DNA of 32,000 nucleotides from Coprobacillaceae bacterium. GTDB taxonomy: Bacteria > Bacillota_I > Bacilli_A > Erysipelotrichales > Coprobacillaceae. Below the pieces are notes generated by a model. That model was not told the origin of the DNA. It made no database searches and worked only from the letters and a program-made list of their open reading frames with translations. The translations under genes and the position numbers were made by a program. Numbering within the stretch: position 1 is the stretch's first letter; each line of letters begins with the position of its first letter. The stretch lies in contig OY776328.1 of assembly GCA_963675515.1 (NCBI GenBank), forward strand, positions 1,500,001 through 1,532,000, read 5' to 3'. Below, piece after piece: positions 3,540-19,574 of the stretch.

Positions 3540-4460
3540 ATGCAAGTAATTTTATTTGTCGGTCACGGTGATTTGCCCAAGGCGATGGTTTCGTCGGTCC
3601 AAATGATCATTGGCCCCAACCCCGATCTGTTCAACGTATGTCTATCCCCGGATGATGGCAAGGATGAATTTGCCGCCAAGCTAAAAGGGCTGGAAGACAA
3701 ACTGGAAAGCTATGAAAAGGTGATCGTGTTCTCGGATTTATTGGGCGGGTCTCCCAACAATGTAAGTTTCGAACAGTATTATCAAGATGACCGCTTCGAA
3801 ATCATTTCCGGAATGAGCCTGGCAATGGCCTTGACCGCCGCACTGTCAAGCAGCGATCCGATAACCATCATTAAAGAAGGGCGTCAGGGAATAATCAATG
3901 TCAAAGATCCCCAAGCAAATATTCAGGAGCAAAAAGACCCGTCAGCAGCCATGGCGAAAGTCAAACAGGGCCGGCCTTACAACATCAAGAATGTCCGGGT
4001 CGATTCAAGGGGCATTCACGGGCAGGTGGCGACCGCCTGGGTTCCGTATCTTGAAGTCGACAGGATTATCGTCATCGATGACAATGCCATCAAGGATGAG
4101 ACCCAAAAGATTGCCCTGAAGATGGCAAAACCCAACCACGTCAAGCTGTCAATCCTTTCGACATCTAAAGCGATTGAGCGTCTTGACAACAGCGATTCTT
4201 ACCTTGACGAGGACATCCTGGTTATCATCCAGCAGGTGAAGACCCTGCAAAGTTTGCATGACAAAGGCTATCGATTTAACGAAGTCAATCTGGGCAATAT
4301 CCCCAACCGTCCGGAAACAAAGGCTTACGGCAAGACTATCAACCTTAATGACGAAGAGGTTGCGACAATCAGAAATCTGATCCAGGCAGGGACCAGCTTC
4401 ACTGCCCAAATGGTTCCAAGCAATCAAAAAACTGATTTCAACGAAATCATCAAAGAATAG
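3540..4460 (+). CDS. PTS mannose/fructose/sorbose/GalNAc-family fused EIIA-EIIB component.
   Basis: N-terminal EIIA-Man motif (ILFVGHGDLPKAM), then a linker, then EIIB-Man/sorbose (VRVDSRGIHGQVATAWV). Confidence 0.9.
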   Translation: MQVILFVGHGDLPKAMVSSVQMIIGPNPDLFNVCLSPDDGKDEFAAKLKGLEDKLESYEKVIVFSDLLGGSPNNVSFEQYYQDDRFEIISGMSLAMALTAALSSSDPITIIKEGRQGIINVKDPQANIQEQKDPSAAMAKVKQGRPYNIKNVRVDSRGIHGQVATAWVPYLEVDRIIVIDDNAIKDETQKIALKMAKPNHVKLSILSTSKAIERLDNSDSYLDEDILVIIQQVKTLQSLHDKGYRFNEVNLGNIPNRPETKAYGKTINLNDEEVATIRNLIQAGTSFTAQMVPSNQKTDFNEIIKE

Positions 4461-4471
4461 AGGAGAGAACA

Positions 4472-5000
4472 ATGGAAATTTGGCAAGCATTATTAATCGG
4501 TTTATTTGCATACCTGGGCCGCAATCAGGTCCCATGGCTATTTGGAACAACCGGAGGCTGGTATGGCATCGGCCGTCCCTTGGTGGCCGGTCTGATCTGT
4601 GGCGTGATACTCGGTGATGTGACAACCGGGGTATTATGCGGGATTGCGGTACAGGCCATCTTTATCGGTCAGATCACTCCTGGTGGAGCGGTTCCTTCGG
4701 ACTTGAACCTGGCGGCGTATATCGGAATCCCATTGGCAATCGTAGCCGGTGGCAATCCGGAAACAGCGGTCGCTTTTGCGGTCCCATTGGGGGCATTGGG
4801 GGTGGCGTTGCATAACTTCACGATGACAACCCAGGCGACATTTGCCCACCGGGCCGATCACTGCGCTGACCGTGGTGATGCCATTGATTGTGGCACTTGG
4901 AAGTTACTTCCTGGTTGACAAGAAAAACTGGAGCACAAATAAACTGCTGCTAGGAATACTCGTATTTGCCGGGGCAATGGTTGCCTTAGGGATAATGTAA
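4472..5000 (+). pseudogene. Deletion-fusion pseudogene: PTS Man-family EIIC (first ~137 codons) joined out of frame to the last ~45 codons of EIID.
   Basis: The EIIC-like N-terminus runs up to ...TFAHRADHCADRGDA (compare ManY ...QHAADKAADNGN). The frame then ends at 4918. Frame 0 from ~4860 reads ALTVVMPLIVALGSYFLVDKKNWSTNKLLLGILVFAGAMVALGIM*, which looks like an EIID C-terminus. There is no intact EIIC C-terminal half and no EIID body. Confidence 0.7.
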
Positions 5001-5039
5001 TAGCACATATAACCAAATAACAAAGGGTGAGCCAAAATA

Positions 5040-5451
5040 GAGGTTCATCCTTTTCGCGGTGTCAAATCAACCGTGACCAGATCAAAGACATGCGGGTTAT
5101 GATGGGTATGGATTGTTATATTTTTTCCTCATACTCATGATACATTTCGGATAATCTAAATGGATGATAGATGGTATTGAAACATTTTTACGTCTATTGA
5201 CACATTCTCGCTATAATCCGCTAATAGATTTTCCAGTCTTGAGCAATTCTATGTGGATATACTCAAAATCAGGCATAACCAACAAGTAGGGATTCTTTTC
5301 AACAATTAATGGAAGGCTTTGATTTGGGTAATGTCAATGTTTTGAATATGAATCCAGGTCAACCCGGTTTTGTCAGCTGCTTTGCAAACCATGATGACGG
5401 TATTTCTTGATACATGCAGCGATGAAGCAGTGAATCGTAGACTTTTTACAT
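5040..5451 (-). pseudogene. Decayed N-terminal remnant of an IS21-family IstA transposase.
   Basis: The minus strand reads ...SLRFTASSLHVSRNTVIMVCKAADKTGLTW...ITQIKAFH*. In a shifted frame it continues (L)IVEKNPYLLVMPDFEYIHIELLKTGKSISGL*RE.., matching the IS21 IstA pattern (HTH ..SRNTV.., LFPEK.., PD.EYIH.EL.K.GVTL.LLW.EY). There are several frameshifts and stops. An SD (AAGGAGG, 5461-5467 complement) plus ATG at 5451 is followed at once by a frame break. The catalytic domain and istB are absent. Confidence 0.55.
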
Positions 5452-5621
5452 AAAAAAACACCTCCTTAGTAGTTACAATGCAGAACGACGTCTGCGCTTG
5501 AATTTTACTACCGAGGGGGTGATTCAGTGTGTGCAACTGTTGAATTATACACATGGCCCTAAGAGCTGGTCACATTGGTTCTAACCTTCAGACATAGTGG
5601 CCCCTAACTTTGGAATACTCA

Positions 5622-7091
5622 TTAGTTGCTAAGATCTTGTTGGATTACCGCAACCCTATTTTCTAAATATTGGATTATATCAATATTTCCGTCTACATAG
5701 TCGCTGTTATCCAGGCGTTCAACAAACGAAGAAATGGAAGATGCGATGCTGCTTTCATTAATTTTGAAAAATATTGCCTTTGAGTTTTCCCGGTTGTATA
5801 TTACACTGACATCGTTATCGCTAGATATGGAGATAATTAAATTCTTATTCAATTTCAGCTTTTTATCATCAATAATTTTTCCTTCGAATTTTTTATCCTG
5901 GAAATATTTGAGAAGATTTTTCAAAACCACAACCCTATCATTTTCACTGAGCGGCAAATATACGTCACTGTCAATCTCGTCAAAAGTACCTTCGTTGATG
6001 AACCTTTCAAGCCCCGATAGCGTGAATAATATCCTTGGAACATGGCCCTCGTCAATATATTTACGGTAACGCAATATCCGGTCGTTCATAATATTGATTA
6101 TCGCTTCCCGGTTTTCTATTTCCGATACCAGGTATTTCCTGATTATTGAATCAGTCAGAAACCATACCAGGCAAGGTTGGTCCATAAGATCGTAAGTGAC
6201 AAATTTGTTGTTCTTTTCCTTCTCATAATAGTATAAAATGAAGTCAAATGTATCCCGGAAACGGTTAATTAGTGGCTTAGTTGTCGCTTCCATTTTTTTG
6301 AAAAAATTATTGTGAACCTCAACTGCCTCGGGCTGGCTGTAGATCATGGCAACATCACCTTTATTAGATAATGTTATTGCATACTTTCCGACAATTATTA
6401 AATTTGGAAATTCAGTCATTTCACTGAATTTTGATGCTATGTCATCATAATATATAAGAAAGGTATAAGATTCACGATTAAGCAAAAACGGTACTATGTT
6501 ATGAATGCTATTTAGGTTATATGTGTTTGTCGAATTCGAACCAATGTTTTTTTCGAAACAAAGTATGTGATTCACTTTTACATTGGGATTGATTTTTTGG
6601 ATGTTGTAGAATAAATTCATAAATAATCTATTTTCAGTTTGCATTATCAGGTTGAGCTCGTTTACTTCGTTGCCTAATGCATCCTCGATAATTGATCGTA
6701 CTGTCCAAAAGACATTGTCTTTCCCTCTTATTGTGCAAAGCCCATCAATACCGTCGATTTCAAAGGAAGTTTTGATTTTAATTTGATTATTTGAATCTTC
6801 AATAGATTCAGTGAATCCTTCGATTAATTTTGTAACAGATTTATCGCGCAAATAAATGTTTTTGCCGTGCTTTGACATTTCATAAGACACCATTAGGTTT
6901 GACTTTTCTGACTCAGTCAGCATCATGGCATCAAGGATCCTTGTGGCTATTTTCCTATTGGCCGGTTTCCTGTCACCTTTGATTATTTTGTGCAATAAAG
7001 TACGTTCGATTCCACTGTCTCGGGACAATTTAGCGATATTAATATCGATGTCCTCGAGTTGTTCCCTTAAACTCCTCGCAAATTCATTCAT
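5622..7091 (-). CDS. XRE-type HTH protein (489 aa) with a ~420-aa C-terminal domain of unknown function. Putative transcriptional regulator.
   Basis: N-terminus is INIAKLSRDSGIERTLLHKIIKGDRKP (HTH_3-like). SD AGAGGGGA lies upstream of the ATG. The gene is very AT-rich. I do not recognise the C-terminal domain, and it is not obviously TPR. Confidence 0.8.
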   Translation of the reverse strand: MNEFARSLREQLEDIDINIAKLSRDSGIERTLLHKIIKGDRKPANRKIATRILDAMMLTESEKSNLMVSYEMSKHGKNIYLRDKSVTKLIEGFTESIEDSNNQIKIKTSFEIDGIDGLCTIRGKDNVFWTVRSIIEDALGNEVNELNLIMQTENRLFMNLFYNIQKINPNVKVNHILCFEKNIGSNSTNTYNLNSIHNIVPFLLNRESYTFLIYYDDIASKFSEMTEFPNLIIVGKYAITLSNKGDVAMIYSQPEAVEVHNNFFKKMEATTKPLINRFRDTFDFILYYYEKEKNNKFVTYDLMDQPCLVWFLTDSIIRKYLVSEIENREAIINIMNDRILRYRKYIDEGHVPRILFTLSGLERFINEGTFDEIDSDVYLPLSENDRVVVLKNLLKYFQDKKFEGKIIDDKKLKLNKNLIISISSDNDVSVIYNRENSKAIFFKINESSIASSISSFVERLDNSDYVDGNIDIIQYLENRVAVIQQDLSN

Positions 7092-7327
7092 GATAATTTC
7101 CCCTCTTTCTCATGGTAATACTCAATAATGTTGCATGCTCATAAGTGAAATCAGTAAAAATTGAATCGATCAACAATATTGGTTGAACAACTCAATATCC
7201 GGTTAAAATGATTTCCCCTCGAAATTTGATCTAAAACCGGTGGTGCTTAGTGTGATGACTTTAAAATATAATAAAATTGCCGGACATTAAGAATTTGTCA
7301 ACGGTTCGAAAATGCGCTGTTTAATTC

Positions 7328-7394
7328 TATCACTGCTGTGTCACTTTAGTAGTCACTCATGCAAGTGGATAGTAGCAACAAACAGTGATATCAT
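7328..7394 (+). promoter_or_regulatory. Three phased GTCAC-type boxes followed 27 nt later by TGATATCAT (set A). Possible third member of the box-promoter family.
   Basis: TATCACTG (7328), TGTCACTT (7339) and AGTCACTC (7351) have start-to-start spacings of 11 and 12 nt. TGATATCAT sits at 7386-7394. No convincing ORF lies downstream before 7868. Confidence 0.3.
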
Positions 7395-7789
7395 TTATCC
7401 AGGCATCATCACTAAATAAAAGATAAAAATCAATTCTACGAAAACCCTATGATAAACACTTAATGCCCGCCAGAAAGTATTACATTACAAATATCTACCA
7501 CGCATGAGTAAAGTCACAGCAAAAGCAATTAATTACACTTATTAACATAACAATATTATACTTCAGTGAGTGAATAATGGCAATTAAAGCCAGGGTACTT
7601 GCTTATTAAATTTCTCAATATTGAATTTCAGCTATCCACTACTCATTAAAAGCTTTGCATTTTATTCTAGACCTCCCTTGGGGGTTAAAACGGGAAGGAT
7701 CGTTTATTCGTATGCAATCATAATTTTTGCCTCATATTCATCATGTCGAATTTAAGAAAGCAGCCGTTCACAAAGTCACTTTCGTTTTC

Positions 7790-7841
7790 CTGTCACACAA
7801 ACAGTCACGCAGTTGACTGACAGTAAAAGCCAATGATAGAA
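7790..7841 (+). promoter_or_regulatory. Box-promoter of the amidase gene (set B): three 8-bp boxes plus an extended -10.
   Basis: TGTCACAC-aaac-AGTCACGC-agt-TGACTGAC-(12 nt)-TGATAGAAT. A -35-like TTGACT (7812-7817) overlaps box 3, with an 18-nt spacer to TAGAAT. The ATG lies 26 nt after the -10. Confidence 0.55.
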
Positions 7842-7867
7842 TGAAAAATGAGTAGGGGGAAAGACAA

Positions 7868-8911
7868 ATGGTGAGTTTAAAAAGGTGCATGGTTGTTCTG
7901 CTTATGTTTGGATTGGTTGCGGGGTTGACCGGTTGCAATATTACTGCAAATAAGGCTGAGACATCTGGTTCGCTAGTTGAAGAAAGGGACGTTTCTACAA
8001 ATGAACTTAGTGATAGTCAAAATACTGAGCAGGAAGTTGAAATATCAGATTCCAATCTGGAAACTGGCCAGTCCGACAATGAAACGGTCGTTATGTACGC
8101 CTCATGCAAAGTCAATATCAGAAATAAGCCTTCTTTCACTGGAGAAATATTGGCAGTTTTGGATAAAAGTGTTGAGGTGGAAGCTGTGATGCATGACGAT
8201 GGTTGGAGCGAAGTTGTCTATAATGGGGATATTGGCTATATCGCAAGCCGGTATCTAACCGATGATAAGGAATTGGGAAACGGATATGTGGTAGTGATTG
8301 ATGCCGGCCACCAGTTGGTTGGCAATTCTGAAAGGGAGCCGATTGGTCCTGGTGCCAGTGAAACCAAGGCTAAAGTAACTGGTGGCACAAGGGGGTGTGT
8401 AAGCGGCCTTGCGGAGTACGAACTAAACCTCCAGGTATCCTTGAAGTTACAGGCGGAATTGGATGACCGCGGATATACTGTTTCCATGATTCGAACTACC
8501 AATGATGTTAACATCAGCAACTCACAAAGGGCGATCATGGCCAATGAGGCTGGCGCTGATGCTTTTTTGAGAATCCACGCGAATGGCTCAACTGATTCTA
8601 ATGACAATGGGGCAATGACGATATGTCAGACACCATCAAACGTTTACAATGGCAATTTGTATGCACAAAGCAAGGCCCTCTCAACCGAAATCCTCGATTC
8701 GCTTGTTGGGGCGACCGGATGCAAAAAGGAATATGTCTGGGAAACAGACACGATGAGTGGAGTGAACTGGGCTCAGGTCCCGGTGTCGATTATCGAGATG
8801 GGCCACATGACAAATCCGGCTGAAGACCGGAATATGGCTAGTGAAGCATACCAATACAAAATAGTCGAGGGTATTGCCAATGGTTTGGATAATTATTTTG
8901 GACTCAACTGA
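7868..8911 (+). CDS. N-acetylmuramoyl-L-alanine amidase (Amidase_3 family) lipoprotein with an SH3b domain.
   Basis: Lipobox LVAGLTGC. SH3b-like segment (VNIRNKPSFTGEILAVLDKSVEVE...GWSEVVYNGDIGYIASRYL). Amidase_3 motifs VVIDAGHQ, LRIHANG and IIEMGHMTNPAED. Confidence 0.9.
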   Translation: MVSLKRCMVVLLMFGLVAGLTGCNITANKAETSGSLVEERDVSTNELSDSQNTEQEVEISDSNLETGQSDNETVVMYASCKVNIRNKPSFTGEILAVLDKSVEVEAVMHDDGWSEVVYNGDIGYIASRYLTDDKELGNGYVVVIDAGHQLVGNSEREPIGPGASETKAKVTGGTRGCVSGLAEYELNLQVSLKLQAELDDRGYTVSMIRTTNDVNISNSQRAIMANEAGADAFLRIHANGSTDSNDNGAMTICQTPSNVYNGNLYAQSKALSTEILDSLVGATGCKKEYVWETDTMSGVNWAQVPVSIIEMGHMTNPAEDRNMASEAYQYKIVEGIANGLDNYFGLN

Positions 8912-9149
8912 ATCGTTGATATGAACGGTTCTCTCCATTCTTTCCGTATAATTGAATGAGCTAGGAGAATATACATTTTGGCTGGATAATGGTTTGTCTA
9001 TGATGGTTTTGGGTTAAAATCCAAAATGTCTGGGGCAAACTTTTTTTGTTTTGGTGATATAAGCTTACCCTGTATGTTAGGATAGTTGTCAGTGAAGGAT
9101 AAATATATTTGTGGTAGTATATAGATACCGCAAAGAAGGAGCTGATACT

Positions 9150-9644
9150 ATGAAATATAGCAAGGAATTTAAAGACTCAATCATTCGGAGAATGCTTCCG
9201 CCTAATAATGAATCGATCAGTAAGATTTTAAAGGAAGAAGGAATCTCGGAACAAACAATTCGAAACTGGAGAAATAAGGCCAGAGCCGAGGGACTTGCTG
9301 TCCCGGGTAACGATTCCGGCTCTGAACAATGGCGTACTCAGGATAAATTCTTGATTGTTGTTGAAACTGCAAGCATGAATGAAACGGAGCTTGCTGACTA
9401 CGCGCGTAAGAAAGGCCTTTATGTTGAACAAATCTTGGCTTGGAAAGACGCCTGTATGAATGCCAATGGAGGCATCGCTCAGGAAGCGGCGCGCTTGAAT
9501 AGACAATTGAAAGATTCCGAGAAGGAAAACAAGCGTTTGGAAAAAGAATTGCCGAGAAAGGAAAAGGCACTTGCTGAAACTGCCGCTCTTCTTGTATTAA
9601 GAAAAAAGGCAGATGCGATTTGGGGGGATCCCGAGGAAGAATGA
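9150..9644 (+). CDS. IS3-family transposase OrfA (HTH / leucine-zipper part).
   Basis: MKYSKEFKDSIIRRML...ISEQTIRNWRNKA, then a coiled-coil (LKDSEKENKRLEKEL). SD AAGGAG precedes ATG 9150. The slippery heptamer A_AAA_AAG at 9602-9608 is in the orfA frame. Confidence 0.85.
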   Translation: MKYSKEFKDSIIRRMLPPNNESISKILKEEGISEQTIRNWRNKARAEGLAVPGNDSGSEQWRTQDKFLIVVETASMNETELADYARKKGLYVEQILAWKDACMNANGGIAQEAARLNRQLKDSEKENKRLEKELPRKEKALAETAALLVLRKKADAIWGDPEEE

Positions 9645-10687
9645 TTAGTTCCTCAGATCGCAGTAGAGCCATTGAACTAATCGATGCCGCAGTTAAATGT
9701 GGCGCAAAACTCTTTGAAGCATGTAAGGAAATCGGAATTACGGAGCGGACTTATTATCGTTGGATTAAGCAATTAAGCACCATGGGCACGATCGAAGATT
9801 TAAGGCCAATTGTCAAACGCCCTGAACCTGCAAATAAACTCACAAAACAGGAACGGGAGAAGATTATTGAAACGGTAAATCAGCCCGAGTATGCCAGTAT
9901 GCCTTTGTGTGAAATAGTTCCTGCCCTTGCAGACAATGGGGAGTATATCGCCTCAGAATCAACGTTTTATAGGCTTCTAAGAGAAATGAAAATGCAGAAC
10001 CATAGAGGAAGATCAGCAGAGCCCAAAAAGCGCCAAATGTCCACGCATGTCGCAAGTGCTCCCAATCAAATTTGGATGTGGGATATTACTTATTTGAACG
10101 GCCCCATTAAGGGAACTTTCTACTATCTATACATGATATCAGACTTATATAGCCGGGACATTGTGGGTTGGGAAGTATGGGAAGAGGAATCCGCTGAACA
10201 TGCCAGTGAACTAATAAATCGAACCGCTTTGGCTCAGCGCGTACTATCAACTGACCCTCTTGTCTTGCATTCTGATAACGGCAGCCCCATGAAAGGCGCA
10301 ACAATGCTTGCGACACTATATCAGCTTGGGATTACACCATCAAACAGCCGTCCAAGAGTAAGCAATGACAATCCATTTGCGGAGAGTCTTTTCAAGACGC
10401 TCAAATACAGGCCAAATTACCAGCCTAAGGGATTTGGCAGTCTCTCTGAGGCTCGCTCATGGTGCGCTGATTTTGTCAGTTGGTATCGTCATGAACATCA
10501 TCATAGCGGCATCAAATTTCTTACACCCGCACAACGTCATAGTGGTGAAGGTGATAAGATTATGGAGAAACGTCGCGAGGTTTATGAAGTTGCAAGAGCA
10601 GCTCACCCGGAAAGATGGAATGGCCGAAATACAAGAGATTGGTCCTTACCGACTGAAGTATTCTTAAATCCCGAGCGGAAGCTATAG
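9620..10687 (+). CDS. IS3-family transposase OrfB (DDE/rve integrase core), expressed as an OrfAB fusion by -1 frameshifting.
   Basis: Lies in the -1 frame relative to orfA. Has the rve motifs WMWDITYL, HSDNGSPMKG and NDNPFAESLFKTLKY. Confidence 0.85.
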   Translation: MGGSRGRMISSSDRSRAIELIDAAVKCGAKLFEACKEIGITERTYYRWIKQLSTMGTIEDLRPIVKRPEPANKLTKQEREKIIETVNQPEYASMPLCEIVPALADNGEYIASESTFYRLLREMKMQNHRGRSAEPKKRQMSTHVASAPNQIWMWDITYLNGPIKGTFYYLYMISDLYSRDIVGWEVWEEESAEHASELINRTALAQRVLSTDPLVLHSDNGSPMKGATMLATLYQLGITPSNSRPRVSNDNPFAESLFKTLKYRPNYQPKGFGSLSEARSWCADFVSWYRHEHHHSGIKFLTPAQRHSGEGDKIMEKRREVYEVARAAHPERWNGRNTRDWSLPTEVFLNPERKL

Positions 10688-10885
10688 AATGCGTTATTGA
10701 CAGCAAGTAAATCATGTTGTACTAAATAGAAAAAATAGAAAAATTACTGACAACATACTTGACAATTACCGCTTATAAGGGATATCTTGTTTGATCATTT
10801 TGGCATAAATTCAAGTTCGGTTCTCTATTATTCGGCGAATTCCTGATAATTATGGTCCATGGCCGCCTAGGGGGCAACAATAATG

Positions 10886-10937
10886 TGTCACACATATTGT
10901 CACACGGTTGTCACATTATCAACAATAATGATACAAT
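10886..10937 (+). promoter_or_regulatory. Box-promoter of the zinc-ribbon cluster (set C): three 8-bp boxes plus an extended -10.
   Basis: TGTCACAC-atat-TGTCACAC-ggt-TGTCACAT-(12 nt)-TGATACAAT. The spacing is identical to set B. A -35-like TTGTCA (10908-10913) overlaps box 3. The module is bracketed by a perfect 11-nt direct repeat CAACAATAATG (10875-10885 and 10920-10930). Confidence 0.55.
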
Positions 10938-11009
10938 ATTATCAACTTGCAAGTATCAGGTTATTCAAAAACAGTTAATTAAGAAATGTAATGAGGGGAG
11001 GCACGTCGT

Positions 11010-11534
11010 ATGTATTGTGCAAATTGCGGTAGTAAATTGGTAGAAGGTGCAAATTTTTGTACCACGTGTGGGACAAAAACAAATAGTGATTCGATCGGGA
11101 GTGCGAGAGAAACAAACAGGACTACAAATAGTCAAAATGGGGGCAAATCCATCTCGAACAATTATTATCCGAAAGCTGCATCACAAGTGGGAGATCAAAT
11201 TTATGATGAATTTGACGGAGCAAATGTTCTTCTGGATACGCCCAAAGAAAAAACAAATATATCGAGTAATAGTCCATCCGCTTCTTCTGGTTTAATGGCA
11301 TTCTCCGGCTTTGTTATCGCGTTATTGATTATTGGTGGTGGTGCATCGATAGCATATGGTTATTATTTGAATTCGACGGTGGATGTTGATAAAGCATATG
11401 ATGATTTTTGGTACAATGGTTCATTGAATTTGCATCCGGGAAATGAATATCTGTCAAATGGTGAAATTGCACTGATCATTGCTGTGGTAATAGCAATCAT
11501 ATTTTATCTAAGTGGAAAGACTCAACGAAAATAA
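11010..11534 (+). CDS. Zinc-ribbon membrane protein (174 aa): N-terminal CxxC-x10-CxxC knuckle, linker, two C-terminal TM helices.
   Basis: MYCANCGSKLVEGANFCTTCGTK. TM helices FSGFVIALLIIGGGASIAYGYY and IALIIAVVIAIIFYL. SD GGGGAGG lies upstream. Confidence 0.8.
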   Translation: MYCANCGSKLVEGANFCTTCGTKTNSDSIGSARETNRTTNSQNGGKSISNNYYPKAASQVGDQIYDEFDGANVLLDTPKEKTNISSNSPSASSGLMAFSGFVIALLIIGGGASIAYGYYLNSTVDVDKAYDDFWYNGSLNLHPGNEYLSNGEIALIIAVVIAIIFYLSGKTQRK

Positions 11535-11586
11535 GAAGTTATATGACTATCTAAAGATCAAACATGAAGGGATGTGAAAATTAGAT

Positions 11587-12117
11587 ATGAGAGAAAAGTT
11601 ATTGAAGTTTGCCAGCTATCTGCTTCCAGCAGTGATAGTGGTCTTGTTGATCATGACATTGAGCATGGTGATTGGTGACAAGATTTTAGGTGTTCAAGCT
11701 ACCAAGGTCGACTCCACTCAGGTTGTAAGCGAGACGGAAACAGGAGATGTATACTTTGAAATTGACGCGATCGGTCTAGAAGTGTCTGGTGCCACTTTTT
11801 TGCAAGCTCAAGATTACACTAATTCAACAAATGGCAGCGACGAATACATTCTTCCCGGCAGTGCAACTAGTCTTTTGGATGAAAATGACCTGACCGGAAT
11901 GACGGCAAAAGAGTTATGTTATGCTCGAAATGAACTGTTTGCTAGACATGGGTATATATTCAAGTCCCAAGAGCTTAACGATTATTTCAACAGCAAAAGT
12001 TGGTATGCACCTGATTTAAATTATTCCTTTGATTCATTGAGTGATATCGAAAAGAATAATGTAGATCTTATCGTCAATTATCAAAACAACAACAATCTCA
12101 ATTATACTGTAAGCTGA
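11587..12117 (+). CDS. Membrane-anchored YARHG-domain protein (176 aa).
   Basis: N-terminal TM (YLLPAVIVVLLIMTLSMVIG). C-terminal ELCYARNELFARHGYIFKSQELNDYFNSKSWY is the YARHG motif. Confidence 0.85.
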   Translation: MREKLLKFASYLLPAVIVVLLIMTLSMVIGDKILGVQATKVDSTQVVSETETGDVYFEIDAIGLEVSGATFLQAQDYTNSTNGSDEYILPGSATSLLDENDLTGMTAKELCYARNELFARHGYIFKSQELNDYFNSKSWYAPDLNYSFDSLSDIEKNNVDLIVNYQNNNNLNYTVS

Positions 12118-12141
12118 TTTTGAGCTAAGGAGGAAGTTATT

Positions 12142-13647
12142 ATGTATTGTCATAATTGTGGCGAAGAAATCGGTGATAACGATATATTCTGCGGCAGTTG
12201 CGGAACAAAAACGCAACGACCTGAAGGTGGTTCATCTATAGCCCGTAGACCTGATAACCAAGGCAAACCCGAAGTTGAACGTTGTGATTCCATTAAAAAC
12301 GTGACCGGTGAAAAGGTTTCCGATGTTGAAGGAGTGATGAAAAATGATTTTAAGGGCAAGGTCGATACTCCAACGCAAGGGGATCGAATACAAGAAACTG
12401 CTGTATGTGAGGAGGGGGATTCTTATAAAGACAAACCGCACATTGCAGGGAATGCGAATATTGATATTATTGAAAGCAATCCAAACGGGATTGCAGAAGA
12501 TGTTAGAATAGGTAAGGCGAAATCCAGGGGAGTCGACAAAGTCAATGCTCCAACGTGGAAAAACAGCAAAACCTACAGGCTTGTGGTTATAGAATCAATT
12601 GTATTGACCGTGGCAATCTTTGTATTCATGTATGTAGGAAAAAACGCGTACAATTATGCTAACGTAGGGAAGGAATATGTCGATGCCATAAATACTGGTA
12701 ATTATGGTAGAGCATATGACCTGATGGATTTGAATGGTGTTTCAGAATCTGATTTTATCAACAAGGAGGCTTATATTCTTGTTAATCAACAAAAAGAAGT
12801 CCTTGATAATTACCAATCTGAGGTTGTGTCTAGTTCTAAAGACTCAGATAGTGCCTTGGTTACAGTAATTGTCAACAATCAGGATAACTATACCGTCAGC
12901 CTGGTAAAAGGAGCGGGAAAGGAATTTTTGGTATTCGATTCTTGGAAAGTTCCTTACAGCAGTATTTGTTCAAATTATGAAATTAATGTTTGTGAAGGAT
13001 CAGTCGTAGAATTGGACGGTGTTAAATTAGACGAAAGTTATCTGGTTCATTCGGGCAATAGCGATGGGGAATGGGATAGCTACAATATTCCTTATCTGTT
13101 TATAGGCAATCACAATGTTAAAGTTTCATTTGGAGATTTTGAGGGTGATAATGAAGCGTTATTCGTTTCAGGGGATAATCAAACATATTATCATGACGTT
13201 CTGGAATTGAGTGAAGAGAGTCAAGGTGAACTTGTGATTAGATGTGCGGATGACTTCAAGATTTTGATGGAAGCCCTGGTCACCGGAAAACCTTTTACTG
13301 AAATCGCAGAAAAATTGACATCGTCCCAATACAATGAAAAAAATGTGTATGATTCGCTGCAGTACAAATATCTCTCAGATGGGGCGTCCAATGGTGTGAT
13401 AAGTGTCGACTACTCCGATATTAAAGGTACATTATATGATTCCTGGATCCAAGAAAGTGGACCAATTGTGGAAGTAAAATTGCAGATGCAATATAAATAC
13501 AATTATATTAATAACAGTGTTGAAAAAACAAGTTCAGGCGGGGATTCGGTTTTCTTTACATATTGCTATGATGAGGATGCAAAAAATTGGAATATCTGTG
13601 ACTTTGATTGGCCGGAACCGTTTGATACAAGCGGATATTACTATTGA
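12142..13647 (+). CDS. Zinc-ribbon / single-pass TM protein with a ~335-aa extracytoplasmic domain of unknown function (501 aa).
   Basis: MYCHNCGEEIGDNDIFCGSCGTK has the same Cys spacing as the 11010 gene. Charged linker, TM (LVVIESIVLTVAIFVFMYV), then a large C-terminal domain. SD AAGGAGGAA lies upstream. Confidence 0.8.
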   Translation: MYCHNCGEEIGDNDIFCGSCGTKTQRPEGGSSIARRPDNQGKPEVERCDSIKNVTGEKVSDVEGVMKNDFKGKVDTPTQGDRIQETAVCEEGDSYKDKPHIAGNANIDIIESNPNGIAEDVRIGKAKSRGVDKVNAPTWKNSKTYRLVVIESIVLTVAIFVFMYVGKNAYNYANVGKEYVDAINTGNYGRAYDLMDLNGVSESDFINKEAYILVNQQKEVLDNYQSEVVSSSKDSDSALVTVIVNNQDNYTVSLVKGAGKEFLVFDSWKVPYSSICSNYEINVCEGSVVELDGVKLDESYLVHSGNSDGEWDSYNIPYLFIGNHNVKVSFGDFEGDNEALFVSGDNQTYYHDVLELSEESQGELVIRCADDFKILMEALVTGKPFTEIAEKLTSSQYNEKNVYDSLQYKYLSDGASNGVISVDYSDIKGTLYDSWIQESGPIVEVKLQMQYKYNYINNSVEKTSSGGDSVFFTYCYDEDAKNWNICDFDWPEPFDTSGYYY

Positions 13648-13663
13648 AAGAGAGGGAAAATAA

Positions 13664-14473
13664 ATGGCAAATTTTTGTACAAGATGCGGGCGACCACTAA
13701 GTCCCGGAGAAGAATGCGGCTGCCAAGCTAAAAATGAAGAGAAAATTGTTACTGAACAAAGCGGATCTGGATTTACACGAGGAATAGCGGCACAAGCTAA
13801 TGTTGACGCAAACGATTTTCAGCAGGCTGAATGGATGAGGCTTTTGGGTGATGCTGTCAATAGGTTGAAAATTCTGGCGAAAAAGCCGGTATCGGAAGGT
13901 AAAATCTTTGTTTCCGAGAATAATTTCCAAATGGCTTTTGCATTTGTGATATTTCAAGCGTTGTCGGTGGCCTTGTTCGTTGTTGTTCTCGAATCGAAAG
14001 TCTCGCAATTGGCATCCAATCTGATGAATGGATTTGGTGATTTGGGGGTACTGTTGGGTTATGCAATACCATCAATGAGTTTTTCGTATGTATCTAACTT
14101 TTTTATGGCAATCCTGTTGTCAACTCTACTTAGTGGAGCACTTGCAGGACTCCTCTATTTGGTGAGTGGCTTTTTCAAAAATGCCATAAGTTTCAAGCAG
14201 GCATTTTGTATCACATCAATGCGGAGCGTGGTTACTGTTCCTGTGGCCATTATTGCTACAGTTGTGAATTTTGTCAGTCCACTCATGGGAATTGTGGCAT
14301 TGTTGATGGCAAATATCTGGGCTTATTGTGTTCTTGTCCAGTTGATTCCTTCGAAAAGAGTGGGATTTGACGATCTAAAACCACTAATGGTATTTCTGGT
14401 TGCCCTAGGCTTTTTGATTGTAAGTGTATTTGCGATTTATCAATCGTACGAAATGTTCGTGCCGAGTTTTTAA
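13664..14473 (+). CDS. Zinc-ribbon protein fused to a polytopic (about 5 TM, Yip1-like topology) membrane domain (269 aa).
   Basis: MANFCTRCGRPLSPGEECGC, followed by multiple hydrophobic helices. It starts 16 nt after the previous gene. Confidence 0.75.
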   Translation: MANFCTRCGRPLSPGEECGCQAKNEEKIVTEQSGSGFTRGIAAQANVDANDFQQAEWMRLLGDAVNRLKILAKKPVSEGKIFVSENNFQMAFAFVIFQALSVALFVVVLESKVSQLASNLMNGFGDLGVLLGYAIPSMSFSYVSNFFMAILLSTLLSGALAGLLYLVSGFFKNAISFKQAFCITSMRSVVTVPVAIIATVVNFVSPLMGIVALLMANIWAYCVLVQLIPSKRVGFDDLKPLMVFLVALGFLIVSVFAIYQSYEMFVPSF

Positions 14474-14537
14474 CACCGAATTTTTGGCGGATATTGAAAA
14501 TATATTGATCATTTTGTAGTTGCCTGGGGGGATATCA

Positions 14538-16061
14538 ATGTCAAAGGGATTGAAATTGTCACATGTATTAGTAGGTTTACTGGCGGTGATAGCATGGTAT
14601 TTTGTGATATCGCCGTTTATTGATGATATGTCAAATGGTGACTCTGCGAGTCAATCAGTTTCCAAAGGGGAGAATGATGAAGTAAGTGAAGAGATTAAAG
14701 CGAAAATCGAAAGCATTGAATATTCATTTGTATTGTCCAGTCTCAGGAGTCAGGGAGCAGAAGATATAGGCTATAAGGTCACCGATGGTGACGGTGATTG
14801 TTACGACGAACTTTTTTTGGAAGCAATCACTGATGGCGACTATCCGATGCATACTCAGTTTATCGCCGATGCTGACGGCTCAAATTCGCAATTTTGGGGA
14901 TACGCTCCAACCGGCGCCGCTGAGAGTTCGAATTTTTGTACTATGGATGGATATGACACAGTTCTATGGAATGACGATTTTTCAACTATCGGATATTCGG
15001 AATCTCACTACAAATGTTGGATTGGCACCGGATGGGAAGAAATCACAGAACTCGATGGTGTTGCCTTCGATTATGATAATAAGGTTGATTTCGACAATCC
15101 GGATTTGTTGAATATCGAAATCCAAGGGGAGCCAATGAGTATCTTTGCCGCCACAAAATCTTACTTTAAGGGAAGAGAAGGGGCAATTGATGTTGGTTCA
15201 GCCGATCTGGATAATGATGGAATGATTGAATGTGTCTACTGTGTCAAAGGCGCGGGAAACAGATGGTTTGACAAATTGGAGATGGAAAACACAACCGAAA
15301 ATCAGTGCACTGATGGATATCATGATGACAATCTCACTGTTGTAATTGTTGATGAAACAATTGATGGTGTCGTGCTCAGACCGGTTTTGATCTCTTATTC
15401 AGGTTTGAACATAAAAATAATTGAAAATACATTATCCATAAATGATGTTTGTTTCAATTATTTTGACACTGATAATACAAACGATAGGCCAAGTCTTACA
15501 TCTACATCGTCAATTTTCGGTTCAAATAGCAAGTTTAACAGTCTTGGTGAAAGAACAATCCTGGGCATGATCGGGGCGTCTTATTCCGATGTTCGCAATT
15601 TGTGTACGAATATCAATTTTTCCTATTCGGATCCTGAATCTGCCACCGCTGAAATTAATGGATCTCAATGCCGGTTTTACTTCAATAACTATTCAAATCG
15701 AAATGCGATAACCTCAGATTCGATAGTGCGCGATATTGAGGTAAACAGTTGGGGGTTTGTAAATGGAGAAATGGCGATAGATCCCACTCCGGTAATTGGA
15801 GATTTTTCTATGGGTGATGCCATTAGTGAATTGAGAAAGCTCATGGTATCATCCGGTGAATGGAGTCCGTTATTATATGGGCAAGACATTATAGCTAGCA
15901 CTAGTTTCTATTATCGACCATCGGATGAAAATGGCCACGTATACCAAGTGATTGTGATGGCCGATGGAGAAACTTTGGATTCCAGGGTATGCGGAATCCG
16001 GCTCGAGCAAATGGATGTTGCAGATCTTGAAGCTAAATCTAAAAAAGCGCTAGGATATTAG
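14538..16061 (+). CDS. Membrane-anchored extracytoplasmic protein of unknown function (507 aa), D/N/Y/S-rich.
   Basis: ATG 14538 sits behind GGGGGG. N-terminal TM (LSHVLVGLLAVIAWYFVISPF). Contains a DLDNDG calcium-binding-like/FG-GAP-like motif. I recognise no family. Confidence 0.7.
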   Translation: MSKGLKLSHVLVGLLAVIAWYFVISPFIDDMSNGDSASQSVSKGENDEVSEEIKAKIESIEYSFVLSSLRSQGAEDIGYKVTDGDGDCYDELFLEAITDGDYPMHTQFIADADGSNSQFWGYAPTGAAESSNFCTMDGYDTVLWNDDFSTIGYSESHYKCWIGTGWEEITELDGVAFDYDNKVDFDNPDLLNIEIQGEPMSIFAATKSYFKGREGAIDVGSADLDNDGMIECVYCVKGAGNRWFDKLEMENTTENQCTDGYHDDNLTVVIVDETIDGVVLRPVLISYSGLNIKIIENTLSINDVCFNYFDTDNTNDRPSLTSTSSIFGSNSKFNSLGERTILGMIGASYSDVRNLCTNINFSYSDPESATAEINGSQCRFYFNNYSNRNAITSDSIVRDIEVNSWGFVNGEMAIDPTPVIGDFSMGDAISELRKLMVSSGEWSPLLYGQDIIASTSFYYRPSDENGHVYQVIVMADGETLDSRVCGIRLEQMDVADLEAKSKKALGY

Positions 16062-16233
16062 CTAATCATCTATAACGCTAATTAGGTGATTGCCGCAAGT
16101 CGTCTAGAGATGGATATTTTTCCATAAAACAAGTAGTGTCCTGTTACGATGTGGTCCATTGGCAGCTATCGAGATGTATATTAGGTTATATAATTAACTG
16201 AAAAATAAATAAATGGCGATTGGAGGTGTAACT

Positions 16234-18855
16234 GTGAAGAAAATCAAAAGAATAGTTAAGTTTTTATTTGTCTTATCGTTGCTTTCTGCATTGTTTGTTG
16301 GTGTGAATGCATTACACAACCAAGACGATTATGACTATAACGCCGAGTATTTGTCTGTGTTAGAAGAAAACTCGGATTGCTACTACCTTCAAAGAACCTC
16401 GCGTAATATAAAATTCAGCGTTGCTGTGTCGGATTCTTTGACAGTTCCAGATTATTCCGTGGTTGATTCAAATGGTGATATGGTTTCGACGGGTTTGGAT
16501 AAGGTGACTGACAGTAATTATGATATATGTTCTCCTACAGGAGGGTATATCGTAGGTGAACAATATACTTTGACACTTAGTGAAGGATTATCCCTCACTG
16601 ATGAAAATCTACAAAGAGCCCGAACTCTAATATTCTCTATAGAACGTAGTGCTGTTGCAAAATATGATTTTACTGACAGAGTTATAGAAACTACCGAACC
16701 TATTAAAGAATTTACAGACGATATTATTTCATTTAATGGAGCTACTGCAAAACCTGGAGAAATTGTTTTTGGTGCTAATGATAACGGTGAGTATGTAGCC
16801 TACAAGATATCGGAAATAAGGGATGATGGAACGGCATCAGTAACTGTGCCGGCAATTGACGAAATATATTCAGAACTTGATGTTTATGGTGATTATGACT
16901 TTGATGTCGATGACTTAATTGCCAATGAAAATCTTGAAATCGAAATAGCTGAAAATACAAAAAATAGCAATTTCTATTCTGCATTGATAATGGAAGCTTA
17001 TGCTCTTGGGAAAACAGACAAAGGGGCGGTTGATGTATCTATTACGCGAGATTCAAATACCAATTCACTTGATACTAAAATAAAAATAACATTGAAACCT
17101 GGTCAAGATGGTTTGTTTGGTATGTGCGAGCTTAAGGATCATGAGGTATCAATTACGTATAATAGCTCCCTCAATTTAAAGGTCCAATCAGATATACGAG
17201 GGGTAAGCAAATGGGATGTCGCAGCATCTGTTAAATCTGGATCATCTTTGAATGTAAAGATAACTCGTATTTTGAGAGAAGCTAAAACCGAAGCGGAAAT
17301 TGATGATTTGTTTTCTCCATCTGGTGAGATTCCAAATGTAACTGATTATCAACAGTATGTCAAAAATATTACAAATAAACTTAATAAAATTGCTGAAGAT
17401 GCCAGTGGGGGGGAGTTAAAAATATTTGACTGGAAAATGCCAATTCCTTCTGTTCCTGGTCTATATTATTCAGCTGAAGTAAAATTGTTCATTGATTTAG
17501 AGATGACTGCAAGTATCGACGTTGGAGCAGATTGTATGACATTTTACCGGGTTGGAGTATGTTTTGCAAATAATGAATTCAATACTTATTCAAATTTATA
17601 TAGTGATGGTGTAAAGCTTTCTCTATCTGTACGTGGTGAAGCGGAGAGCAAGACTGGTATTAAGCTCGAAGTTGGAGCAACCCTTATAAATGATAAAGTG
17701 GCTAACATTAGAATTGATCCAGAAGCTGGTGTCTATATGGATATGTATGCAACGGTTCCCATCTATGGAGAACTTGACAATATTTCAAAAAGATGTTTAT
17801 ATGGGTATTTTGAGCCAGGTATCTATTTAGGGGCAGATTTAAATGCTCGATTGAACATTGTCCTTAAAACGGTTAATTATAGTTATGGATTAGCCGAAAA
17901 GAAACTTCCATTTGATAATTGTATCATTGGAGAGAATGAAATTGCTTTGGATATAGAATCAACTGAAGGAAGTATTGCAGCGGTAAATAACGTTGCCAAA
18001 TTGCCAAATATTCTATTTGAATATTATGACGTTAAAGATAACTGCATAAATAATACAAATCTTTCTAATGATGATTTGGAATATACATTGAATGATGGAA
18101 CGGCTCTTGAAGTGTATGATGGGAACGTTGTATTGCCTTCAGGTACTCCATCCGGAAGCAATTATGTTACTGCGAAATATCATCATAGTAATGGAGGCGA
18201 ATATGATACAACTTTTGAGGTTGTTGTTTACGACGGTATAGTGATAAATGATGAGTTAAACAGATTCTTTAGTAATTTTTGTGACCCGTGGCCTACAATA
18301 GATGAATTTAGCGCTGCGAATATTGATATGGACCAATTAATTGAATTTTCTATATTTTACAATTTATTTAACAACAGTGATCAATGTGAGGAGATACAAA
18401 ATTACTATGGTGGCTATTATAGTATTTCAGAAGAATATGTTGAGCAATCCATCAGACGCTTCTTTGATTTAAACAGTGAAGAACATATCAAATTTGTGGA
18501 TTCAATATACGCGTATTCTACAGTAGATAGTGGCATTGGATATGAAAACGGGTATTTTAATTTCCTATGGCCAGATAATGAGATCTTTAATTTTGCGCAT
18601 GTAACTAAACTTTATGATAACGGTGATGGCACTTACACCGTGCTATTTGATGTTTATGGTGCGTATGGATATGACCTTGCAACGGGTAAGACAATTGATT
18701 ACTCAAAAATCAATGTGTACGCTAATAAAAGCGAATGGGATTATAAAATCGGTGATTCAAACTATTTTTGCGATTGTCATTATGAGGCGGATGTAAAACC
18801 TTACTATTATAATGGAATAGAAACATATCAGGTTATAAGCATGAAAAAAAAGTAA
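16234..18855 (+). CDS. Large secreted or anchored protein of unknown function (~873 aa).
   Basis: The likely start is GTG 16234, 7 nt after GGAGG (the ORF-track ATG 16213 has no SD). Signal-peptide-like N-terminus (KKIKRIVKFLFVLSLLSALFVGVNA). The remainder is beta-rich and D/N/Y-rich. Confidence 0.75.
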   Translation: MKKIKRIVKFLFVLSLLSALFVGVNALHNQDDYDYNAEYLSVLEENSDCYYLQRTSRNIKFSVAVSDSLTVPDYSVVDSNGDMVSTGLDKVTDSNYDICSPTGGYIVGEQYTLTLSEGLSLTDENLQRARTLIFSIERSAVAKYDFTDRVIETTEPIKEFTDDIISFNGATAKPGEIVFGANDNGEYVAYKISEIRDDGTASVTVPAIDEIYSELDVYGDYDFDVDDLIANENLEIEIAENTKNSNFYSALIMEAYALGKTDKGAVDVSITRDSNTNSLDTKIKITLKPGQDGLFGMCELKDHEVSITYNSSLNLKVQSDIRGVSKWDVAASVKSGSSLNVKITRILREAKTEAEIDDLFSPSGEIPNVTDYQQYVKNITNKLNKIAEDASGGELKIFDWKMPIPSVPGLYYSAEVKLFIDLEMTASIDVGADCMTFYRVGVCFANNEFNTYSNLYSDGVKLSLSVRGEAESKTGIKLEVGATLINDKVANIRIDPEAGVYMDMYATVPIYGELDNISKRCLYGYFEPGIYLGADLNARLNIVLKTVNYSYGLAEKKLPFDNCIIGENEIALDIESTEGSIAAVNNVAKLPNILFEYYDVKDNCINNTNLSNDDLEYTLNDGTALEVYDGNVVLPSGTPSGSNYVTAKYHHSNGGEYDTTFEVVVYDGIVINDELNRFFSNFCDPWPTIDEFSAANIDMDQLIEFSIFYNLFNNSDQCEEIQNYYGGYYSISEEYVEQSIRRFFDLNSEEHIKFVDSIYAYSTVDSGIGYENGYFNFLWPDNEIFNFAHVTKLYDNGDGTYTVLFDVYGAYGYDLATGKTIDYSKINVYANKSEWDYKIGDSNYFCDCHYEADVKPYYYNGIETYQVISMKKK

Positions 18856-19022
18856 TACAGTGAAGCTCACAGGTATAAATTATTGGTCAAAGTGACAATA
18901 TATATTATTTCCATAATACCATTAACCTTATGCTAAGGGGGCTATTCTAGCATGGTCATCAAAGCAATGGTAACTTAAGGAAAAATGTAACAGTACTAAT
19001 ACCGATCAATAAATGGTGAGAC

Positions 19023-19063
19023 AAAAACAACCCGTCCGGGAATTCCCGGGCGGGTTGTTTTTG
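19023..19063. terminator. Strong bidirectional rho-independent terminator.
   Basis: AAAAACAACCCGTCCGGG-AATT-CCCGGGCGGGTTGTTTTT forms an ~18-bp stem with one G-U pair. It has an A-run on the 5' side and a T-run on the 3' side. Confidence 0.85.
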
Positions 19064-19574
19064 TCGCTAATGTAGTTTAGATGCTACCTGACATCCCTGG
19101 AAAGTTTTTATGTCGAAGTATTTGAATGGCGACTAGACTGTTTATTTGGTTTGGGAATCCTGACATGGGCAGACCATGGGGAGGATTAGACAAATAATTA
19201 ACATCTAACACGTGATGGACAATCATATAGTTAAACTGGCGCAAATATTGGTGATGTTGTTTACCAAGACAAAGAAAAAATGCCGCAAGGTTTTATTTTC
19301 CTGGTGGATAAGCGGAAGCCCCGAGTAAACATATTTATCTAAATGGCAATGTCACGTAAGTTATTTCCGATCCATTTGGATTTGCAGTATTATGCAAAAC
19401 AATTCATGAGACTATTTCATAAAGTAAAAACAAAATTTCATAAATTAAAAATATTCGCTTTTAAGATTTGATTTTGTGGTAGGGTAATTAAGAGCCATTT
19501 CCTAATAGTTAGGAAAAACTGTTAGCGGCCTGTTTTATTATTTTGATGTTATATTGTAATAGGAGTTGATGAAT

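Follow-up and report, generated by a model that had tools for sequence, protein, structure and literature searches.

The stretch analysed here, referred to as the window, comprises 32,000 nucleotides (nt) of a Coprobacillaceae bacterium genome (assembly GCA_963675515.1, contig OY776328.1, positions 1,500,001 to 1,532,000 of the forward strand), and at positions 11010-18855 of the window lie six + strand open reading frames (ORFs), g1 to g6, separated by spacers of 52, 24, 16, 64 and 172 nt. These are g1 (11010-11534, 174 amino acids, aa), g2 (11587-12117, 176 aa), g3 (12142-13647, 501 aa), g4 (13664-14473, 269 aa), g5 (14538-16061, 507 aa, or 513 aa from an alternative TTG start at 14520) and g6 (16234-18855, 873 aa from a GTG start behind GGAGG, or 880 aa from an alternative ATG at 16213); public protein records carry the 507-aa form of g5 (P0058) and the 873-aa form of g6 (P0001). 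Upstream of g1, a promoter region on the + strand (10886-10937) contains three TGTCACA boxes at 10886, 10898 and 10909, spaced with a period of 11-12 nt, which overlap a promoter-like site made up of a -35 element TTGTCA (10908), an 18-nt spacing and an extended -10 element TG-TACAAT (10937). Downstream of g6, an intrinsic terminator (19020-19066) forms a 21-bp perfect stem with a folding free energy of -40.4 kcal/mol (z -8.9). The stem is preceded by an A-run on its 5' side and followed by a T-run on its 3' side, so that it could terminate transcription in both directions, and ~500 nt of non-coding DNA then separate it from a PRD/Mga-EIIA regulator gene at 19566. The 172-nt spacer between g5 and g6 has no significant structure (z 0.01) and could hold an internal promoter. 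We find the cluster to be operon-like, with gaps, promoter-like site and terminator all consistent with a single transcript, as a preliminary description of the locus, which listed the six co-directional genes with these gaps, one upstream box-promoter and one strong terminator, had proposed.

That description also held that every product is membrane-anchored or secreted, and a Kyte-Doolittle hydropathy scan, the source of all transmembrane (TM) segments given here, predicts at least one such segment in each of the six. The g1 product begins with a zinc ribbon of the CX2CX10CX2C type (MYCANCG...FCTTCG; Zn_Ribbon_1, PF13240, 29.1 bits against a Pfam cut-off of 25), and its membrane part is a two-TM hairpin with segments at ~90 and ~146; a ribbon-DUF3592 fusion was considered for this protein and is ruled out by an hhalign probability of 0.4%. 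The g2 product has a single N-terminal TM anchor at residue 4 and a C-terminal YARHG domain (PF13308, residues 86-166, 80.3 bits against a cut-off of 27, 1e-22), as previously assigned. In g3, a second CX2CX10CX2C ribbon (MYCHNCG...FCGSCG; Zn_Ribbon_1, 29.7 bits, cut-off 25) is followed by a ~120-aa low-complexity linker, one TM segment at ~144 and an ectodomain of ~335 aa, and the ribbons and linkers of g1 and g3 resemble one another. The g4 product has five predicted TM segments and a Yip1 match (PF04893, 22.8 bits, E 9e-5) that lies under the cut-off of 28.6 while spanning profile positions 23-171 of 173, and its N-terminal knuckle is a degenerate CX2C-X9-CXC that has no ribbon match in Pfam. 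Three zinc ribbons had been counted in the cluster; two of these, in g1 and g3, are certain by the Pfam cut-off, and the third, in g4, is probable only. NCBIfam, PADLOC and PHROGs add nothing for any of the six products beyond matches to the ribbon.

The g3 product, which a word-index search had made to look like an orphan, belongs to a large family. An exhaustive HMMER search recovers 562 representatives at E<=1e-3 and 231 at E<=1e-10, all of them ribbon-TM-ectodomain proteins of 400-500 aa, in keeping with the general abundance of N-terminal zinc-ribbon membrane proteins in Gram-positive genomes. The g3 product itself has no match to a TcaA domain in Pfam at E<=0.1, and among 36 of its relatives we find weak matches to TcaA_2nd in two (best 8.5e-4), MecA_N in three and PEGA in five. 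Searched against the PDB, the family profile matches an NTF2-like transpeptidase (3k7c, E 0.003) and the N-terminus of PBP5 (E 0.015). On this sequence evidence, g3 appears to be an architectural analogue of TcaA and at most its distant relative.

The two largest products, g5 and g6, were described earlier as D/N/Y-rich ectoproteins of no assignable family, and this stands: the combined content of D, N and Y is 21-24% in both, and neither has a credible match in Pfam, NCBIfam, PADLOC or PHROGs. The g5 product has a predicted N-terminal anchor and two Ca-binding-like loops, DGDGD and the DLDNDG noted before. Its family is rare (eight homologous clusters), its homologues are lipoproteins with a GCSKK lipobox in the alignment, a sequence search of the PDB with the family returns no match, and the AlphaFold2 (AF2) model, with a predicted local distance difference test score (pLDDT) of 50.8, is unusable.

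The g6 product is, by comparison of its two parts, a conserved region joined to a private tail. Homology to 57 clusters, at 34-55% identity over ~665 aa and with E down to 1e-228, is confined to the N-terminal ~668 aa (16234-18237, + strand), which we call g6N; the remaining ~205 aa (18238-18855, + strand) are lineage-specific, have no detectable relatives, no Pfam match and no PDB match, and are modelled by AF2 with pLDDT <40. The homologues carry CarboxypepD_reg or prealbumin-like repeats in place of this tail. Many of them come, according to their record titles, from faecal, rumen, chicken and rabbit-gut samples. The g6N region has no Pfam match, and a sequence search with the g6 family finds no meaningful match in the PDB. 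Its AF2 model reaches a pLDDT of 80-90 over residues 1-345 and 60-85 over residues 390-668, and shows, from N- to C-terminus, a TM helix, Ig-like sandwiches of short strands and a helical insert, after which ~12 strands of 14-20 residues form consecutive hairpins, with two further sandwiches behind them. A Foldseek search with this model returns generic tandem-Ig matches alone, phage Ig-like tail proteins among them, all with a TM-score below 0.1. Confident structural matches to unrelated, already explained pathways had been named beforehand as grounds for refutation; for g6N no such match emerges, and for g5 the model does not support the comparison. In the homologues of the canonical module described below, a further ~170 aa at the C-terminus, after the CarboxypepD_reg repeats (alignment columns ~1020-1190), are conserved, with the consensus DEIRIVLTWG..PSDLDSHL...DVDDTSSYGPETITI. 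This domain has no apparent counterpart among the 25 commonest Pfam families in the members of the alignment, and presumably resembles domains of the DUF2135/YfaP type.

The neighbourhoods of g6N homologues reveal what is conserved about this locus. We mapped 25 g6N loci, some of them near-identical, that were obtained from a homologue look-up (locus L001) and from genome and metagenome scans. The canonical module, found in Oscillospiraceae and other Clostridia metagenome-assembled genomes, runs in the order DUF3592 (a two-TM protein of ~120 aa), g6N protein (~1000 aa), one or two ribbon TM proteins of variable length and ectodomain, DZR706 (a double-ribbon TM protein of ~700 aa) and ZnR144 (a soluble coiled-coil protein of ~144 aa with a C-terminal ribbon). 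The ectodomains of the variable partners include TPM (L001, L012) and SBP_bac_3 (L014, L026), and others have no recognised domain. In 17 of the 19 loci that have a + strand ORF downstream of the g6N homologue, the first such ORF is a ribbon gene; of the two exceptions, one has a 61-aa ORF in first place with ribbon genes right after it, and in the other the contig, of 3 kb, stops at this point. Wherever the sequence reaches far enough, ribbon TM proteins flank the homologue in almost all loci. ORFs with an N-terminal CxxC...CxxC pattern make up 36 of 100 at a distance of up to three genes from the homologue and none of the 101 beyond (Fisher p 2.5e-13), and the adjacency is kept down to 34% identity, in several lineages labelled Clostridia or Bacillota, with conserved order and gaps of 10-30 nt. 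The juxtaposition of zinc knuckle-TM-diverse ectodomain proteins with a large ectoprotein, which the preliminary description had picked out as a unit, is thus non-random, and this linkage points to a shared role in the cell envelope as far as gene neighbourhoods can indicate one.

What the ribbon-bearing partners share is the ribbon. It is their only homologous part, aligned by hhalign with a probability of 94-99% over 25-28 columns, which fits a common docking module onto which different ectodomains (TPM, SBP_bac_3, YARHG) have been swapped. The products of g1, g3 and g4 were considered as orthologues of the canonical partners and are ruled out as such, the alignment being limited to the ribbon. 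A second arrangement is seen at L020 and L021, where a gene for a ZnR-TM-YARHG protein, with ribbon and YARHG domain fused, immediately precedes the gene for a g6N protein that has a different C-terminus. Convergent to this pair of genes is a pair encoding an extracytoplasmic function (ECF) sigma factor and a zf-HC2 anti-sigma factor (L020, 13053-14441; L021, 4469-5857), a possible link to envelope stress. The window represents a third arrangement, in which the ribbon genes g1 and g3, probably joined by g4, and a separate YARHG gene, g2, adjacent to g1, all lie upstream of g6; g1, g3 and g4 are 1.7-5.2 kb upstream of it on the same strand, whereas ribbon genes lie downstream in canonical loci. 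Like the canonical module, the window combines a g6N protein with co-directional ribbon TM genes; unlike it, the window lacks a CarboxypepD_reg C-terminus on g6 and adds a YARHG protein, a Yip1-like protein and g5.

The six-gene set as a whole is a different matter. Its recurrence was examined in 34 loci (370 kb), each of them chosen for a homologue of g5 or g6, and it does not recur in any of them, with g1, g2 and g4 not searched separately; the exact set seems to be unique to this genome, and the recurrence asked about in the preliminary description is not supported. The homologues of g5 occur in varied contexts. At L006, a gene for a zinc-ribbon protein with a weak Yip1 match (E 0.023) stands directly upstream of the g5 homologue, as g4 does in the window, and ribbon genes also lie near the g5 homologue at L007. 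A conserved g4-g5 pair would be a weaker echo of the g6N linkage, suggested by the one additional locus, L006. The 301-aa neighbour of the g5 homologue at L031 was examined as a counterpart of g4 and is an unrelated lipoprotein.

Several g6N loci have further features of their own. A co-directional set of genes precedes the module at L001 (2501-9199) and also at L002, L003 and L022, and encodes an AAA+ ATPase of 710 aa, four proteins of no Pfam family (196, 523, 187 and 445 aa) and a DUF4280 (PAAR-like) protein; it was considered as part of the module and set aside, being absent from most other g6N loci, and is probably a separate uncharacterised system. At L019 (9261-14387, Lachnoclostridium edouardi, GCA_900240245) the g6N gene is broken up into three ORFs and DZR706 into two, and a resolvase gene adjoins them; either this copy of the module is decaying or the assembly is at fault. 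In place of DUF3592, the g6N homologue at L015 is preceded by a dockerin-bearing subtilase (Peptidase_S8 + Big_2 + Dockerin_1) and an MscS-like channel whose N-terminus is greatly extended (the region at 4252-8586).

Upstream of the cluster in the window lies a + strand gene (7868-8911) for a putative amidase lipoprotein of the N-acetylmuramoyl-L-alanine type with an SH3 domain (Amidase_3 2.2e-36, SH3_3 2.8e-9), whose product begins with a hydrophobic segment followed by LTGC. The DNA in front of it (7774-7842, + strand) contains AGTCAC at 7774, TGTCACA at 7791 and AGTCAC at 7803, followed by a promoter-like site with TTGACT (7813), an 18-nt spacing and TAGAAT (7842). Pairs of the form WGTCAC-N5-7-WGTCAC occur four times in the window against 0.03 expected, and all four are in the intergenic regions before the amidase gene and g1 alone, each region having a sigma-70-like promoter after the boxes; the sequence itself thereby gives direct evidence that the two share a cis element. 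Between the amidase gene and g1 stand the orfA and orfB of an IS3-type insertion sequence (9111-10687, + strand, HTH_Tnp_1 1.2e-14, rve 2e-19, overlapping at 9620-9644), for which we find as candidate ends just a 9-nt inverted repeat (9085-9093 and 10746-10754) and no plasmid match. The preliminary description, which made no mention of this element, took the cluster to be apparently co-regulated with the amidase, and the idea retains support despite the intervening IS3 because the repeats occur only before these two genes.

Divergent from the amidase gene, on the - strand at 5622-7091, is a gene whose 489-aa product has at its N-terminus a weak match to an XRE/Cro-type helix-turn-helix (HTH) (HTH_26, E 0.019; a singleton cluster) and is a candidate regulator of the region. 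The 780-nt intergenic region that separates the two contains further WGTCAC boxes at 7339 and 7351, which form a pair, and at 7512, and these may be operators through which the HTH gene regulates itself. The HTH gene, the amidase gene, the IS3 element and g1-g6 all fall in a stretch of low guanine-cytosine (GC) content (5000-19500, 0.33-0.45, compared with 0.44-0.50 in the downstream flank), which is probably an accessory island judging from its composition, although neither integrase nor att sites were found for it. Sugar operons of the phosphotransferase system (PTS) flank it on both sides. In one of these, the IIC gene of a mannose/sorbose-type PTS is broken (4472-5000): a 148-aa ORF matches EII-Sor at profile positions 1-135 of 233 only, the next ORF, of 52 aa, overlaps it in a different frame, and no IID gene comes after IIAB-IIC. 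The low-GC stretch begins right after the broken IIC, which suggests that the island or its acquisition disrupted the PTS operon. All six products of the cluster are singletons at 90% identity, and the window proteins that were looked up among ~15 billion proteins, the PTS EIIC included, are likewise singletons or near-singletons; this indicates a rarely sampled lineage rather than novelty of the island, since housekeeping PTS genes share that status.

The statement that no characterised system has this composition proves too strong, as the components are of known, functionally obscure kinds, namely ribbon membrane proteins, TcaA-like proteins and YARHG proteins. The llmg_0524-0525-0526 operon of Lactococcus lactis (Roussel et al. 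2015, PMC4628341) encodes a ribbon-2TM protein like g1 and a ribbon-1TM-ectodomain protein like g3, and has a phenotype in cell-wall integrity; its proteins have no other recognisable motifs, the likeness is one of motif and architecture, and it has three genes rather than six and no YARHG, Yip1-like, g5 or g6N partner. Llmg_0524 and Llmg_0526 bind zinc via the CX2CX10CX2C motif at a site that is stable to oxidants and was judged structural rather than sensory, removal of the motif from Llmg_0524 impairs growth and changes lysozyme resistance, and the resemblance of Llmg_0526 to TcaA of Staphylococcus aureus was pointed out in the same study. S. aureus TcaA and proteins of the Bacillus YvbJ type have a ribbon, a single TM segment and an extracellular part of ~300 aa, as g3 does, and TcaA affects wall teichoic acid retention, autolysis, crosslinking and glycopeptide sensitivity (PMC10328498); its gene is in the tcaRAB locus and does not adjoin a g6N gene. 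ZnR-TM-YARHG proteins were described in 2012 by Coggill and Bateman (PMC3355149), who proposed as a hypothesis that YARHG binds peptidoglycan outside the cell in Gram-positives and who report 73 of 290 proteins, all of them Gram-positive, in which it is joined to an N-terminal ribbon; where searched, their text yields no g6N-like partner. None of the papers listed by full-text searches on YARHG, DUF3592 and TcaA, which were not aimed at the g6N family itself, describes that family or its tight linkage to ribbon genes. We conclude that the window presents the g6N-ribbon theme in a rearranged form peculiar to its lineage, and is neither a new category nor a conserved six-gene system.

The reading that we favour, at a probability of roughly 40%, is that g1-g6 encode a membrane assembly that faces the wall, with cytoplasmic zinc ribbons holding its parts together. 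Its core would be the recurrent Clostridia partnership between a large anchored g6N ectoprotein and small ribbon membrane proteins with interchangeable ectodomains, whose sole cytoplasmic feature would be the ~22-aa CX2CX10CX2C ribbon; in the window these partners would be the TcaA-like g3, the bare two-TM hairpin of g1 and the Yip1-like g4, with the TM-anchored YARHG protein g2 and the rare Ca-loop ectoprotein g5 completing the set. The ribbons would act as zinc-stabilised docking or stability knuckles that co-localise the partners and the g6N scaffold in the membrane, the YARHG and NTF2/MecA_N-like ectodomains would contact peptidoglycan or wall polymers, and the g6 stalk would carry its variable tip through the wall. 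Expression together with the Amidase_3 lipoprotein, by way of the shared WGTCAC boxes acting as activator sites, would then tie the assembly to wall maintenance, turnover or surface presentation. We infer the physical complex, the binding to the wall, the co-transcription and the role itself. More broadly, and as a tentative proposal, g6N and the ribbon proteins may form an unrecognised envelope machine of Clostridia in which the ribbon, as a cytoplasmic docking module, plugs interchangeable sensor or binding ectodomains (SBP_bac_3, TPM, YARHG, TcaA-like) into one large scaffold at the surface, the window being a rearranged version linked to an amidase.

A number of observations count against such an assembly. 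The g6N loci are partly orthologous and not phylogenetically independent, so that the p value of 2.5e-13 overstates the number of independent events; ribbon genes adjoin the g5 homologues in just three of six distinct contexts; and the 34 loci contain no amidase and, the 20-28 aa of the ribbon aside, nothing orthologous to g1, g3 or g4. The window in turn has no match, by tblastn or hhalign, to DUF3592, DZR706 or ZnR144 except in the ribbons, and the IS3 element leaves the amidase gene not contiguous with g1-g6. The wall contacts depend on a peptidoglycan-binding function of YARHG that is itself a hypothesis and on a TcaA-like signal that lies under the Pfam thresholds in the family and is missing from g3, and the structural search assigns no function to g6N or to g5.

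In an alternative explanation, which we consider doubtful, the six genes would have no joint function and would form a fast-evolving island of independent surface proteins (adhesins, shields or phage-receptor decoys) that are merely co-transcribed. Local duplication and shuffling could cluster ribbon-TM genes, which the likeness of the g1 and g3 ribbons and linkers fits, and the failure of the exact set to recur, the singleton status of the six proteins, the low GC of 0.33-0.41, the adjacent IS3, the broken PTS operon and the swapping of ectodomains and of the g6 C-terminus between lineages all agree with it. Singleton status loses its weight once the sampling of the lineage is considered, and the g6N-ribbon adjacency, maintained to 34% identity, is difficult to account for unless the linkage is under selection. 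A mobile-element cargo, anti-phage or toxin system (a prophage remnant, defence island, contractile-injection or polymorphic-toxin locus) is highly improbable and largely refuted. The adjacent IS3, the resolvase beside the L019 module, the AAA+ ATPase/DUF4280 set just upstream of the modules at L001-L003 and L022 and the weak Foldseek matches to phage Ig-like tail proteins could be cited for it, but the lone PADLOC match is at chance level (g5, E 0.029, 11.7 bits), PHROG matches cover the ribbon alone, a tblastn search of 50,697 phage and 72,556 plasmid records gives no match to g6, the AAA+/DUF4280 genes are missing at L010, L014, L017 and the window as well as elsewhere, and the Foldseek matches are the generic Ig tandems described above.

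Transmembrane sensing, in which the ribbon-TM proteins would be one-component-like sensors or membrane-tethered transcription factors and g6N a co-receptor or a regulated output, we regard as unlikely. The variable ectodomains would recognise wall fragments or solutes, and the ribbon would pass the signal on to a partner in the cytoplasm. The idea of membrane-tethered transcription factors was put forward by Coggill and Bateman (PMC3355149), and it is in line with the sensor-type ectodomains of the variable g6N partners (SBP_bac_3, TPM, YARHG), with the place of the soluble ZnR144 in the canonical module and with the ECF sigma/zf-HC2 pair convergent to the L020 variant. Against it, the cytoplasmic part consists just of the ~22-aa ribbon and a linker of low complexity, and no output domain, whether DNA-binding or enzymatic, is recognised in it; the zinc site in L. 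lactis is stable to oxidants and was judged structural (PMC4628341); and the window lacks a ZnR144-like soluble partner and has in g1 a ribbon protein almost without an ectodomain.

To our knowledge, TcaA and Llmg_0524 are the only N-terminal zinc-ribbon membrane proteins with a phenotype, and we know of none with a mechanism. The g6N family provides a conserved genomic partner, and with it a concrete handle on this orphan architecture, to which the swap-in ectodomains of known ligand-binding types and the promoter element held in common with an amidase add further handles. If the ribbons are indeed docking modules, a very common orphan architecture would be explained, with a bearing on glycopeptide sensitivity, through TcaA, and on the surface biology of Clostridia.

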